A stretch of 55,480 bases of DNA from Patescibacteria group bacterium. GTDB taxonomy: Bacteria; Patescibacteriota; WWE3; JAMCXX01. Under the pieces are notes generated by a model. It saw nothing but the letters and a program-made list of their open reading frames with translations, had not been told where the DNA came from and ran no database searches. Shown piece after piece: positions 13,702-21,921 of this stretch; the stretch's first letter is position 1; each line of letters begins with the position of its first letter. The stretch is taken from positions 1 through 55,480 of the forward strand of contig JAMCXX010000001.1 of the NCBI GenBank assembly GCA_023474425.1, given 5' to 3'. Made by a program: the position numbers and the translations under genes.

Positions 13702-14205
13702 TTAATTATTAGTTCTTATCCTTACTGCCTCCTCAACCGCGTCAGAAATGTATCTTGAAATCCAGTCGTATCTTTCTTTGCTGTTACTTCCGCTCGGATT
13801 GTAACATTTTACTATCGCAGATAATTTTTTACCAGTGTCGCCGTAGGATATGTAATCAAACGGATTGGCTCCAGATTCGGTAATGTACCCCTCGTTATTT
13901 TTCAATCCATGTATACGAATACCAACTACACCCAAACTAGCGTTCCATGCTTCTATAATCTCGTGATTTATCCATTTACGATTCGCTGTTTCCTTTCCAA
14001 CAAGCACAACCGCGCATGTTCGATATTTCATTTGTTCCTTTATCCATTTTTTGATCGCCTCGTGGCCACCGCGCACAACCGTTTCCCAATCATTATCCGG
14101 TGCCGGTTTGTTTCCCTCAATTACTCCAATACTACGAACAGTTGCTGCTCGCCAGCAATCGGGTTTGTAGTGAAAACTATAAAAAACTTGTCTTCTTGTT
14201 GCCAT
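13702..14205 (-). CDS. ThsB-like TIR-domain protein (DUF1863/Thoeris ThsB clade)
   Basis: The ORF track starts at 14298. I prefer the ATG at 14205 (167 aa), 2 nt after the upstream stop codon. Blocks VFYSFHY, VLVGKETANRKWINHEI and GANPFDYISY resemble ThsB as I remember it, and the candidate catalytic Glu is retained. Confidence 0.72.
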   Translation of the reverse strand: MATRRQVFYSFHYKPDCWRAATVRSIGVIEGNKPAPDNDWETVVRGGHEAIKKWIKEQMKYRTCAVVLVGKETANRKWINHEIIEAWNASLGVVGIRIHGLKNNEGYITESGANPFDYISYGDTGKKLSAIVKCYNPSGSNSKERYDWISRYISDAVEEAVRIRTNN

Positions 14206-14207
14206 AT

Positions 14208-14612
14208 TTATTTGATGAGTTGTAGAACTACAAACATTGCTAATGCAAGCGGTACATAAAACCAAAGCAAGGTCGCAGACAACATTGAGCCAAGCCAAGT
14301 ATTACGCCAAATATCTTTGTACTTTTTTGTGTTCATCGAAAAATCTACTTTCTGCTCGTCCAGTTTTCTTACATCGTCGTATAAACAGCAAAATCTCCGT
14401 TCTTGTGAGAGAAAATATCCGTCCAAAATCCAAAAAATAAGAAGCAGAAAGTAAGCGAGCAAAATATAGCCGCCATACGAACCCTTTGCGGCGGAAAGTG
14501 CAAATAGTCCGGTAATTAAGGTTATTGTCCAGCCACGCAGGAAAAATAAATTTCCGGCCATTCGATTTATAACCCCCTGTATTAACTCAAGATGTTTACG
14601 CTTATTTTCCAT
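14208..14612 (-). CDS. Small three-TM membrane protein, unknown family
   Basis: 134 aa with ATG start. Hydrophobic segments at about aa 22-42, 47-67 and 105-131, with a charged ~35-aa loop between TM2 and TM3. Tightly coupled to the TIR gene. Confidence 0.6.
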   Translation of the reverse strand: MENKRKHLELIQGVINRMAGNLFFLRGWTITLITGLFALSAAKGSYGGYILLAYFLLLIFWILDGYFLSQERRFCCLYDDVRKLDEQKVDFSMNTKKYKDIWRNTWLGSMLSATLLWFYVPLALAMFVVLQLIK

Positions 14613-14622
14613 TGCTACAAAA

Positions 14623-15462
14623 TTATAGTTTTCCTTCCTCTAACTTTTCCGGCGGCGGTTCGATACCAAGAAATTCTCGGTAGATTCGATTTTTATAGTC
14701 TGCCCCAATCTCATTTATCGCTTCGATAAATGCTTTATATGTCCCAAGCCCGCCGATTTTCTCCCAAAACTCATCACCAATTAAAACTACTTCATCGTTT
14801 TTCATATCGAACCACCGAGCCGGAAAAGCCCAAGAGTAATTCTCTCGTTTCCCAAAAGGATTGTAGGGAAGCGCGTAAAAAGCACCGTCAACTTGCAATG
14901 GCTCCATACTATAAAGCTTGAGCATTTTCTCTTTACTTACCTTTGTTTGGTCGCTATTCGGCAAAGGTGCCTTCAACTCAAAAGCATATTTCTTTTTGTT
15001 TTTTTTATCTTCCGCATATACATCAGATATGACCGTAACAGGAATAAGTTTTGTGTTTTTGCCCTCCAAAATATATTTCAATTCATTGTCCCAATCCGGC
15101 TTAATGCGTTTCTTATCTTTTATTCCGTGTTCAAGGTTATTTAGCACTTCTTGGATCCTACGCAATCTTTCGGCATTTACTTTGCCAGTTATTGTCTTTC
15201 CTTTTTCTCCGTGCCCAAGACCGTTATTTGCCGCAACTATCGCTAACTTTTCCCAAACCCCGCCGAATGGGGTAACAAAACGGCGTTCAAAATGAGAGCC
15301 CTTAAATATTTCGTCCGGTACTAAAGCCGCATAAAGCGGCTTCTTGGCTCTGTGTTCTTCTTTCACAAAAGGTTCTTCTACCAAAACCTTATTCATAACC
15401 CTATCCATCATCATTTTTATGACAGATTGGATTGCCTTTTTCATTTCTTGTTTCTCGGTCAT
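14623..15462 (-). CDS. Type II restriction endonuclease (PD-(D/E)xK; TdeIII-like by recollection)
   Basis: 279 aa. The ATG overlaps the methyltransferase stop (ATGA). Candidate catalytic motif SDVY-x12-FELK (D...ExK). The family name is unverified. Confidence 0.6.
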   Translation of the reverse strand: MTEKQEMKKAIQSVIKMMMDRVMNKVLVEEPFVKEEHRAKKPLYAALVPDEIFKGSHFERRFVTPFGGVWEKLAIVAANNGLGHGEKGKTITGKVNAERLRRIQEVLNNLEHGIKDKKRIKPDWDNELKYILEGKNTKLIPVTVISDVYAEDKKNKKKYAFELKAPLPNSDQTKVSKEKMLKLYSMEPLQVDGAFYALPYNPFGKRENYSWAFPARWFDMKNDEVVLIGDEFWEKIGGLGTYKAFIEAINEIGADYKNRIYREFLGIEPPPEKLEEGKL

Positions 15463-16652
15463 ATTTTTTGCCAGATTAAAATACTTTCGTAAAATGCACC
15501 CTCACGTCTTCCAGTCCGGCGGTTCACATGACGTTCAACACGTCCAATTTCCTTAAACCCCGCATCGTCTGCTTTGTAAAGTCCATATTTGTCATTTACA
15601 ACAATGAGAGCCAGACCTTTTGGCGTCATATATTTACGAGTATGGAGTAAAACATCATTTATGCCTTTGATATAGTCCTGTTTTGCTTGTTGTGATTGTC
15701 CATTTTTTGCAGGACCAATTTCCCTCGTCTCGTTATTTTTTAGACCAAGTAATTCGTAAGCGTATTTATGTTGTTCGTGGTAATCAATCAAACCAATATA
15801 GGGAGGTGAAGTGAAAACCATATCAATACCGTTTGGTAACTCAACCTCGCGCGAATCCGCATGGTTTACGATTACTTTTGCTTTCGTCTTAATTTTAGAA
15901 AATTCTTTTATGCGATCTAACGTATCAATCGTGTAACGCGACAAGAATTTATAAGCTTCTTCAACCGGCTGACATGTTCGGTTATGTTTGTAGCACTGAT
16001 AGGGTTTTGTTTGCGGCTCCTTTGGAAAATCCAGATCGTAGTGTGTAACAAGCCGCGCTGAACGCGCCGAACGAGATAAAACAACTTTCAATAAATCTTG
16101 ATAAGTGTAATCCTTAATAAGCCGTAGATAGCATAGAAGCTCTTTTTGTGTGTTTGGCGCGAACCATTTTTGTATATACTCATTTTTCGTTGAAAATACC
16201 TTGTTTACCTTTTCGTCATTAGAAAACTTACTTTTATAGGTATTGAGACGATTCAAAATTTCGTAAACTTCCTCTTCAAGTCTTGGAATATCATAATCAT
16301 CAGTCTTAACTTTTGAAAGCAGGATATTAAAGGCCGAAATATCAGTGCCGATTGAATCTATGCCGAGCGCGTTTGCCTCAACTAAAGTTGTCCCGCTTCC
16401 AGCGAACGGGTCATAAACAAGGGTTGGCTCGTACTTACGTAAAAATATTTCTACAAGTTGCGGAATAAATTTACCAAGATAGGGATGTAAGCGGTGAACG
16501 TGTTTTGTTCTTTGGTATTCGGGCAAATCGCGCTCGCGCCAATTCAAATTCAAAGATTCAAGTGGAGTCTCCGGCTTTACGCTGGCAAAATCCGTAAGCG
16601 GATTTTGCTTATACTGCTGGGCTATTTTTTGAGCAATAGTATTATCGTACAC
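15459..16652 (-). CDS. DNA methyltransferase (N4-cytosine or N6-adenine; SPPY motif)
   Basis: 397 aa with GTG start. AdoMet motif I DPFAGSGTT (aa 81-89) precedes catalytic motif IV TSPPY (aa 281-285). HPYLGKFIPQL block typical of the N6_N4 MTase family. Confidence 0.85.
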   Translation of the reverse strand: MYDNTIAQKIAQQYKQNPLTDFASVKPETPLESLNLNWRERDLPEYQRTKHVHRLHPYLGKFIPQLVEIFLRKYEPTLVYDPFAGSGTTLVEANALGIDSIGTDISAFNILLSKVKTDDYDIPRLEEEVYEILNRLNTYKSKFSNDEKVNKVFSTKNEYIQKWFAPNTQKELLCYLRLIKDYTYQDLLKVVLSRSARSARLVTHYDLDFPKEPQTKPYQCYKHNRTCQPVEEAYKFLSRYTIDTLDRIKEFSKIKTKAKVIVNHADSREVELPNGIDMVFTSPPYIGLIDYHEQHKYAYELLGLKNNETREIGPAKNGQSQQAKQDYIKGINDVLLHTRKYMTPKGLALIVVNDKYGLYKADDAGFKEIGRVERHVNRRTGRREGAFYESILIWQKI

Positions 16653-16793: not shown

Positions 16794-16884
16794 TGGTGCT
16801 GAGGAGAGGACTTGAACCTCCACCCCCGATTTTACGGAGACAGGCCCCTCAAGCCTGCGCGTCTGCCAATTCCGCCACCTCAGC
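16794..16884 (-). tRNA. tRNA-Leu (anticodon GAG), CCA encoded
   Basis: 91-nt class II tRNA. Acceptor GCTGAGG/CCTCAGC, anticodon loop TTGAGGG, long variable arm. Confidence 0.9.
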
Positions 16885-16899
16885 TTATTTCTTATTTTA

Positions 16900-18432
16900 T
16901 CACACGTTGGCGAACTCCTTAATTGCTTTGGCGGCTTCCTTAGGTTGTTCCAGGGGTACCACGTGTCCCGCTTTCTCGATTATTTTTAAGCGCACCAGGC
17001 TGTTTTCGGGCAAGATTTTTTCTCGAGCGAAATTAGGTGAAGAGATCTTGTCCTCGCGGCCGTAAAGAAGCAGGGTTTCCGTGTCGGTTGATTTAAGTAT
17101 ACCGGCCAAGTCGTAGCCTGCGGCCGAAATTCCCATTTGCGTAAAGGCTTCCTTACGCATCTTTTTTTTGCCGATCAGTCCGTAGGCGTCAACCAGAAAA
17201 CGATTAAACTTGTACATATTAATGTATTTGGACATGGCATAGGCGGCCAGCCTGGTTTCAATAATTTTCTTTAGAGTAGATTCGCCCAGTGAAAATTTCT
17301 TGAATAACCAAAGAGAATACCTCACCGCGCTGCCGGCCAGGTCAATCCCCTGCCCGCGCATTACCGGGCCGGCTAAGATTAATTTACTTATTGAGTTCGG
17401 AAACCTTTTAGCGGTTTCCGCGGCTACTAAACTGCCCATGGAAAGTCCGCAAAGAATCACGGGACTTTCTGAAACCGCAGTTAAAAAGCGGCCAACATAA
17501 TTGGCTGCGGATTCAATGGAATAAACCGGCAAATCGCCCGAATCGCCGAATCCCGGCAAATCCAAAAGATAGAGCGTAAAGTCTTTTTTTAAGTATTTAA
17601 TCACCGGAACCCAACCCTCCCAGTTATTGGCCCAGCCGTGAATTAGGACTAACGGCCGTCCGGCTCCAACCCGGACATAATTTATTTTAAGACCTTTAAT
17701 AATTACATTTTTAGGACGATAGTTAGAAGTAAGACGTCCGGCGGGAGCCTCCCAGTAGTTTCTTAGGCCGTTTAGAAAGTCACGGGGCATTTGAGTGCCG
17801 TAGATATTAACGTATTTACCAACCAGGTTGCTGGCCTCGGCCAGGTGAAGCTTCCATCCGTGCCCCTTTTGGGGTTTGGGTAAGTCGTTGACCCCGTCCA
17901 GAAGAACCTTGATTACCGGTTGTCTTTTTTTAAAGAAATAGTAGTTCATGTAGGGCTCAATGCCGTAATCATCGGCTAATGGGCTATCAAGAACTTTAAT
18001 TAAGTCGTTTTTAGAAATGACCCTCATTCCGGAAATAAGCGGCAAAAAGTTAGCCCGTATCCAGTGGTAGGAAGACAGATTATTTTTTTGGGTTAGACCT
18101 ACAACCAGCCCCTTAGGGTTTTTCTCATAAGCCTCAACCATTTTTCTTACATGGTTTTCTTTAAGCCCGATTAAGTCGGCATCGCAAAGAAAAATGGCGG
18201 AACGTGTGGCAAGATTTAGGCCTTGGCGTACATCCTGTCCTTTGCCGCCGCGTTTTTTTAGCGCAACAATTTTAACCTTATTAAAATTCCGGGCGATTTT
18301 TACGGAGTTGTCCGTACTACCCCCGTCAACAAAAATAATTTTTTTAACTAGAGGGGATTTGTTTAAGGCCGTAAGCACGCCTCCGACCCTTGGTTCCTCG
18401 TTGTAACAAGGGACGATTGTGTCAATAATCAT
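16900..18432 (-). CDS. Fusion protein: family-2 glycosyltransferase (N) plus alpha/beta hydrolase (C)
   Basis: 510 aa with ATG start. N-terminus has IVPCYNEE...FVDGGSTDNS...DAD (GT-A/GT2). C-terminus has LVLIHGW...GLSMGS (GxSxG nucleophile elbow)...GH. Confidence 0.8.
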   Translation of the reverse strand: MIIDTIVPCYNEEPRVGGVLTALNKSPLVKKIIFVDGGSTDNSVKIARNFNKVKIVALKKRGGKGQDVRQGLNLATRSAIFLCDADLIGLKENHVRKMVEAYEKNPKGLVVGLTQKNNLSSYHWIRANFLPLISGMRVISKNDLIKVLDSPLADDYGIEPYMNYYFFKKRQPVIKVLLDGVNDLPKPQKGHGWKLHLAEASNLVGKYVNIYGTQMPRDFLNGLRNYWEAPAGRLTSNYRPKNVIIKGLKINYVRVGAGRPLVLIHGWANNWEGWVPVIKYLKKDFTLYLLDLPGFGDSGDLPVYSIESAANYVGRFLTAVSESPVILCGLSMGSLVAAETAKRFPNSISKLILAGPVMRGQGIDLAGSAVRYSLWLFKKFSLGESTLKKIIETRLAAYAMSKYINMYKFNRFLVDAYGLIGKKKMRKEAFTQMGISAAGYDLAGILKSTDTETLLLYGREDKISSPNFAREKILPENSLVRLKIIEKAGHVVPLEQPKEAAKAIKEFANV

Positions 18433-21528: not shown

Positions 21529-21603
21529 TGGTCGGGGAGACAGGAGTCGCACCTGCTACCTCTCGGTCCCAAACCGAGCGTTCTACTGCTGAACTACTCC
21601 CCG
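21529..21603 (-). tRNA. tRNA-Pro (anticodon TGG), CCA encoded
   Basis: 75 nt. Acceptor CGGGGAG/CTCCCCG, anticodon loop TTTGGGA. The T-loop reads TGCGACT (G at position 55). Confidence 0.85.
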
Positions 21604-21618
21604 CAATTCAAAGTCGAA

Positions 21619-21695
21619 TGGTGGGCCCGGATGGTCTCGAACCAACGACCTTTCGGATGTAAACCGAACGCTCTAACCGGCTGAGCTACGGGCCC
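21619..21695 (-). tRNA. tRNA-Val (anticodon TAC), CCA encoded
   Basis: 77 nt. Acceptor GGGCCCG/CGGGCCC, anticodon loop TTTACAT. Confidence 0.9.
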
Positions 21696-21757
21696 TTAAC
21701 TTAAAGTATATCCCAGTGGAATTGAAGCCGTAAATATTGTAGATTGAGGTAAGTTGG

Positions 21758-21844
21758 GCCGGCGTGGCGGAACAGGTATACGCGACAGACTTAAAATCTG
21801 TTGTCAGCAATGACGTGTCGGTTCGAGTCCGACCGCCGGCACCA
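21758..21844 (+). tRNA. tRNA-Leu (anticodon TAA), CCA encoded
   Basis: 87-nt class II tRNA. Acceptor GCCGGCG/CGCCGGC, anticodon loop CTTAAAA. Confidence 0.9.
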
Positions 21845-21847
21845 GTA

Positions 21848-21921
21848 GCGGGTGTAGTTCAATGGTAGAACGTCAGTTTTCCAAACTGAGAACGGCGGTT
21901 CGATTCCGCTCACCCGCTCCA
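21848..21921 (+). tRNA. tRNA-Gly (anticodon TCC), CCA encoded
   Basis: 74 nt. Acceptor GCGGGTG/CACCCGC, anticodon loop TTTCCAA. Confidence 0.9.

Follow-up and report, generated by a model that had tools for sequence, protein, structure and literature searches.

A putative type V Thoeris gene pair, thsF-thsB, in an uncultured Patescibacteria group bacterium

The window, that is, the whole 55,480-nt stretch of contig JAMCXX010000001.1 (Patescibacteria group bacterium, assembly GCA_023474425.1) that was analysed, contained a four-gene defence block in the order MTase-REase-thsF-thsB, with tRNA-Leu(gag) at its upstream edge (Table 1; gene names follow the assignment made below). The stop codon of thsF (14208-14210) was separated by a 2-nt gap from the ATG of thsB at 14205 on the same strand, the TdeIII-family endonuclease gene was located 10 nt upstream of thsF, also on the same strand, and the methyltransferase gene overlapped the endonuclease gene by 4 nt. 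An earlier reading made from the letters alone (the sequence-only reading) had described the two smaller open reading frames; both frames, their coordinates, the 2-nt spacing, and the peptide blocks that it quoted were all confirmed on the minus strand.

Table 1. Genes of the defence block and the adjoining tRNA gene, with positions in the window.
Feature	Position	Strand	Description and supporting match
thsB	13702..14205	minus	167 aa, putative TIR-domain sensor and signal synthase
thsF	14208..14612	minus	134 aa, putative three-helix membrane effector of type V Thoeris (= PADLOC PDC-M50A)
TdeIII-family type II restriction endonuclease	14623..15462	minus	PF09520 8.3e-73; PADLOC REase_II 3.5e-41
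Type II DNA methyltransferase	15459..16652	minus	Pfam N6_N4_Mtase 6e-12; PADLOC MTase_II 4.3e-93
tRNA-Leu(gag)	16794..16884	minus	ARAGORN and Rfam

A tRNA gene is a typical insertion point of islands. Att-like direct repeats flanking the island beside tRNA-Leu were searched for and not found, and there was no integrase among the neighbour genes scanned. The window contained 16 tRNA genes, several of them clustered (e.g. 21532-21918, 33850-34139, and 37788-38049), and just past tRNA-Leu there was a gene for a 510-aa fusion of family 2 glycosyltransferase and alpha/beta-hydrolase domains (16900-18432, minus strand). The GC content was 0.39-0.42 across 13-17 kb, compared with roughly 0.44-0.47 in the flanks. 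In the sequence-only reading the pair had been placed in a low-GC array with an R-M system; the R-M genes were real (TdeIII, 8e-73, and the methyltransferase), whereas the drop in GC content was modest. The two TdeIII-type R-M genes form a separate defence system on the same small island and lie outside Thoeris; a tie of thsF and thsB to this R-M family was rejected, because homologues of the window endonuclease or methyltransferase were present at only 3-7 of 80 thsF-family loci. R-M genes of other kinds were seen near several thsF-family loci, without a systematic count. A promoter and terminator scan of the locus performed below chance and was therefore uninformative.

The TIR reading frame from the ATG at 14205 encodes 167 aa and carries VFYSFHYKPDCWRAATVRS, CAVVLVGKETANRKWINHEIIEAW, and GANPFDYISY. 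A longer version with a TTG start at 14298 overlaps the upstream gene, and because TIR homologues at other loci likewise start MATKRQVFYSFHY, we regarded the ATG at 14205, and not the TTG, as the real start of thsB. The protein matched Pfam PF08937 (ThsB_TIR) at 9.2e-25, the PADLOC ThsB model PDLC00433 at 1.2e-63, and the PDC-M50B model at 2.7e-59 over model positions 2-160 of 162. Among solved structures, its best match was 8wcf, annotated as 'Molecular chaperone Tir' (4.6e-31), and the Bacillus cereus ThsB structures 9b7d and 6lhy matched at approximately 5e-16 (6lhy, 5.8e-16). Glu82 of the window TIR, in 'NHEI', aligned to the Glu of the 'RYEI' motif of B. cereus ThsB, and the proposal of a ThsB-type TIR with its catalytic Glu was thereby upheld. 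This Glu was retained in all 72 of the 72 thsF-adjacent TIR homologues, and the window TIR deviated at none of 49 positions conserved in at least 90% of close relatives.

Yirmiya et al. (December 2025) extended Thoeris to eleven verified types and approximately 29 effector classes; type V consists of ThsB and ThsF, the latter labelled DUF2270 and spanning the membrane with three helices, and was validated with the systems of Bacillus thuringiensis DAR 81934 and Bacillus sp. 1NLA3E (bioRxiv 10.64898/2025.12.03.692087). The sequence-only reading had known ThsA effectors only as SIR2-SLOG or 2TM-Macro proteins, which is outdated in the light of that survey. Table S1 of Yirmiya et al. includes, under the label 'DUF2270 - Type V', TIRs that showed 62-76% identity with the window TIR. 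The window ThsB falls in TIR cluster 2661146773, which also includes type XI TIRs (47% identity to the window TIR) and does not contain any of the three type V ThsBs tested by Yirmiya et al.

The 134-aa protein encoded by thsF matched PADLOC model PDLC04686 (PDC-M50A) at 5e-46 over model positions 1-129 of 134, and Pfam and NCBIfam scans gave no match. Even with the limit relaxed to E <= 10, PF10028 (DUF2270) gave no match to the window protein, and its matches to relatives of the protein were sub-threshold, the best scoring 20.8 bits against a cut-off of 25 bits; at E <= 0.01, weak DUF2270 matches were obtained for 8 of 150 diverse relatives. No Pfam match is on record for the validated B. 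thuringiensis DAR 81934 ThsF either. Because of these sub-threshold scores and the lack of a Pfam match for the validated protein, DUF2270 is a weak label and unusable as a criterion. Among the same 150 relatives, DUF3278 matched 23 weakly, and PF24838 ('8xMP, octameric membrane protein family') matched 4 strongly, with a best value of 1.6e-27; the coverage of the ThsF-like superfamily in Pfam seems to be confined to side branches. A literature search found nothing relevant on PDC-M50 or on 8xMP/octameric membrane protein. The family itself is large: 1,578 clusters were obtained at a 90% identity level, and matches with E <= 1e-3 numbered 5,034 when reduced to representatives at 50% identity.

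An AlphaFold2 monomer model of the 134-aa protein (pLDDT 88.7) predicted helices at residues 2-43, 47-83, 106-110, and 113-133. In this model, helix 2-43 comprises an amphipathic N-terminal part and TM1, helix 47-83 comprises TM2 with a cytosolic extension, and helix 113-133 is the C-terminal TM helix. The best 19-residue Kyte-Doolittle averages were 1.53 (residues 22-40), 2.26 (50-68), and 2.30 (115-133), so that two segments are strongly hydrophobic and TM1 only moderately so; the earlier description of three strongly hydrophobic segments held for the second and third segments and was slightly overstated for the first. When PDB sequences were searched with a profile of the family, nothing was found, and Foldseek comparison of the AlphaFold2 model with the PDB gave no match below E = 2.6. 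SLATT or a type II membrane effector was considered as the identity of the 134-aa protein and rejected, as there was no domain match; Pfam scans of this partner of thsB and of six flanking genes detected no SIR2-SLOG, Macro, or SLATT domain. The sequence-only reading had asserted the absence of SIR2, SLOG, and Macro for the entire window, and these scans bear it out for the immediate neighbours.

To compare the effectors directly, the validated B. thuringiensis ThsB was found as a 100%-identical database protein (P0271), and its contig was then read. The gene directly downstream of it encodes a 141-aa protein, which is ThsF; in Table S2, the B. thuringiensis ThsB and ThsF have IMG gene IDs that follow directly on one another (bioRxiv 10.64898/2025.12.03.692087). 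The window 134-aa protein showed 49% identity with this ThsF (E = 7e-43) with 129 of its 134 residues aligned, hhalign gave a probability of 100% for the two, and both matched PADLOC PDLC04686. From this direct effector match by identity, hhalign, and PADLOC, we concluded that the genes at 14612-13702 (minus strand), thsF then thsB, constitute a type V Thoeris anti-phage system, with a probability of roughly 0.85. An earlier route, through plasmid matches to the B. thuringiensis ThsB (H1 and H2), had led to loci without a TM neighbour; the TIR clade of the B. thuringiensis ThsB serves other effectors too. The B. thuringiensis type V locus (L087, 4454-6759) adjoins genes for a UvrD-type helicase and an OLD-TOPRIM ATPase, a Gabija-like pair, and on account of this pair it sits in a defence island.

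Judged by its model matches, the window pair corresponds to a candidate system catalogued since PADLOC-DB v2 as PDC-M50; PDC-x entries are 'unpublished candidate systems' (PMC11811056). Both proteins matched their PDC-M50 models over the full length (A, 5e-46; B, 2.7e-59) and the genes are adjacent, but the catalogue entry carries no mechanism, and the function comes from the type V Thoeris paper. Together with the identity to the validated ThsF, these matches bore out the earlier suggestion that the pair is a defence system. The accompanying suggestion of novelty did not survive, since the pair corresponds to both the catalogued PDC-M50 and the published type V Thoeris, an outcome that the sequence-only reading had itself named as telling against it.

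The synteny of the family was analysed at 80 loci from species-representative genomes, each with a gene for a relative of the 134-aa protein. A window-like TIR was encoded on the same strand at 73 of these loci, mostly within 50 bp downstream, and at 5 further loci a TIR of another ThsB clade was encoded directly downstream; one locus was cut by a contig end. The thsF-family gene adjoined a ThsB-like gene at 78 of the 79 informative loci, which supports the proposed partnership of the two proteins. Both gene orders occurred among relatives, and at L040 (1359-2651) and L078 (4977-6579) one thsF was followed by two ThsB genes of different TIR clades. The similarity of ThsF to the window protein was approximately 60% whichever TIR clade it was partnered with (Spearman rho = -0.04, p = 0.71). 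Because this similarity is independent of the partner clade, ThsF appears to be a conserved effector that is shuffled among sensors. Homology to type V Thoeris, the two-gene architecture, operon adjacency, recurrent synteny, and the retained catalytic Glu are thus directly observed features of the window pair.

Hosts of the thsF family belonged to many bacterial phyla and included many Patescibacteria MAGs as well as cultured isolates such as Nitrosomonas europaea. The thsF-thsB pair was also present in two MAGs of archaea (L010, 2596-2994, and L053, 1493-1888), one labelled 'uncultured archaeon' and the other from Nanoarchaeia, and the family was rare on viral contigs. There were 113 plasmid records with the thsF family, including 40 from Klebsiella and 36 from Escherichia; 72 of the 113 were conjugative. 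At the plasmid loci examined, including L083-L086 from Priestia, Terribacillus, and Klebsiella, relatives of ThsF annotated as 'hypothetical protein' were encoded beside TIR genes, the TIRs being of the B. thuringiensis type V clade.

Three fusion proteins, P0140 (378 aa), P0132 (362 aa), and P0199 (351 aa), carried a ThsF-like module at the C-terminus. P0140 had a SLOG-like domain at its N-terminus (NCBIfam Thoeris type III ThcA, 1.2e-8), and Pfam SLOG cluster2 was matched by one of the 150 diverse ThsF relatives at 1.7e-15. These fusions may represent the candidate 'SLOG and 4TM' class of Yirmiya et al., and the joining of SLOG to a ThsF-like module fits the view that the ThsF module provides the output in response to a nucleotide-derived ligand.

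Compared with the characterized type V systems, the window pair has the same layout of a two-gene operon with a ThsB TIR and a three-helix membrane protein of roughly 135-140 aa, its ThsF is about half identical to that of B. thuringiensis, and Table S1 assigns its TIR clade to type V. It differs in gene order (thsF-thsB in the window, thsB-thsF in B. thuringiensis), in having a short, 167-aa DUF1863-type ThsB that belongs to another cluster than the tested ThsBs, in an Arg75Cys replacement in ThsF, and in its location beside an R-M system in an uncultured host. Type I Thoeris (ThsB with a SIR2-SLOG ThsA) shares the ThsB-type TIR, as the match to 6lhy indicated, and likely the signal 3'cADPR, but the window effector is a small membrane protein and not a SIR2-SLOG NADase, and NAD+ depletion by the effector would not be expected. 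The activation of a membrane-spanning effector by a small-molecule signal is a feature in common with type II (TM-Macro ThsC) and type VII (SLATT ThsH) Thoeris and with the membrane effectors of CBASS and Pycsar. However, neither Macro nor SLATT was detected by Pfam in the window 134-aa protein, and the signals of types II and VII, His-ADPR and canonical cADPR, respectively, differ from that of type V.

In type V Thoeris, infection leads the ThsB of B. thuringiensis DAR 81934 to produce 3'cADPR even when it is expressed without its partner, addition of 3'cADPR is toxic only to cells with the system, and defence is lowered by Tad1, a 3'cADPR sponge; AlphaFold3 predicted the B. thuringiensis ThsF to be a ring-like homo-heptameric channel with positively charged pockets between protomers (bioRxiv 10.64898/2025.12.03.692087). 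These three experimental results identify ThsF as the responder, and one of the two options offered by the sequence-only reading, in which the small three-TM protein acts at the membrane as the effector of a TIR product, has thus been demonstrated in the homologous system. By analogy with that system, from which signal identity, oligomeric state, and defence phenotype would carry over, the ThsB of the window would sense phage infection, and its TIR active site (Glu82) would turn NAD+ into a cyclic ADP-ribose isomer, probably 3'cADPR. The signal would bind ThsF, presumed to be a ring-shaped homo-oligomer in the membrane with charged pockets between protomers, and the bound ThsF would turn toxic, presumably by breaching the membrane, so that the infected cell would stop growing or die before the phage cycle was completed.

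The other option, that the TIR itself is an NAD+-depleting effector with the membrane protein as its sensor or gate, starts from the existence of NADase effectors among bacterial TIRs, which are possible for the non-verified Thoeris types (bioRxiv 10.64898/2025.12.03.692087). Published results for the homologous system speak against it: a validated type V ThsB makes 3'cADPR without its partner, and 3'cADPR is toxic only when the system is present and the sponge weakens defence. The SLOG-ThsF-like fusions, moreover, place a ligand sensor ahead of the membrane module, and several ThsB clades pair interchangeably with ThsF. We therefore consider this arrangement highly improbable. The signal is the least secure step of the preferred mechanism, in which ThsB signals to ThsF, because the window ThsB falls in a cluster that differs from those tested and holds type XI TIRs, and because the 1NLA3E system was unresponsive. 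The type XI TIRs of cluster 2661146773 yielded none of the known signals, and 3'cADPR did not render the type V system of Bacillus sp. 1NLA3E toxic (bioRxiv 10.64898/2025.12.03.692087). Both results would suit the same architecture running on another signal, with a ThsB clade whose product is derived from ADPR but is not 3'cADPR, and with a ThsF sub-branch tuned to that product. On the other hand, both of the assayed type V ThsBs, which belong to different clades, produced 3'cADPR (bioRxiv 10.64898/2025.12.03.692087), and the equal similarity of ThsF across partner clades and the occurrence of a single ThsF with two ThsB clades at some loci point to a common signal. On balance, a different signal for the window system is rather unlikely, and by analogy with the assayed ThsBs we slightly favour 3'cADPR as its specific signal. 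The broader proposition that the short DUF1863-type ThsB clade as a whole makes a signal other than 3'cADPR, with ThsF either multi-ligand or divided into sub-branches of differing ligand specificity, appeared quite unlikely; if it were true, Arg75Cys would mark a pocket residue, and TIR-signalling immunity would be extended to small-genome Patescibacteria and to archaea (two MAGs, one of them Nanoarchaeia).

The Arg75Cys replacement bears on whether the window copy works at all. Residue 75 of ThsF, which lies within a conserved cytosolic segment after TM2 and is encoded by codon 14388-14390 (minus strand), is Cys in the window and Arg in 262 of 276 relatives (95%). All five of the closest relatives checked (90-96% identical) have Arg, making Cys75 private to the window copy, and it is the sole deviation of the window protein among 33 highly conserved ThsF positions. 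The conserved basic residues of the family (K4, H7, R17, K/R26, R72, and R75) would fit the modelled ring with charged pockets, save for the Cys75 of the window. Arg75Cys could weaken ligand binding or gating, and the window copy might on this account be decaying or attenuated, with ThsF disabled and the system non-functional. However, the reading frames of thsF and thsB are both intact, the TIR is unaltered at all 49 of its conserved positions, and in approximately 5% of ThsF relatives position 75 is occupied by Ile, Leu, Lys, Val, or Gly, so the replacement may be neutral. It could also be a single-base assembly or sequencing error. A non-functional copy is thus very unlikely in our estimation, and Arg75Cys may be hypomorphic, or stem from an error in base calling, in a pair that we continue to regard as type V Thoeris.

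The window pair is an ordinary further example of type V Thoeris and not a new system, and as such it changes little for the field. A reader with only the sequence in hand was able to spot a real defence pair and to guess its logic correctly, although the type had already been published and catalogued. For the family, the analysis indicates that ThsF is freely shuffled among at least three ThsB clades and that this effector goes undetected by Pfam (DUF2270) and NCBIfam; at the plasmid loci examined, on conjugative plasmids of Klebsiella and E. coli among others, its relatives bear the annotation 'hypothetical protein'. The natural Arg75Cys variant could serve as a probe of the proposed ligand pocket.
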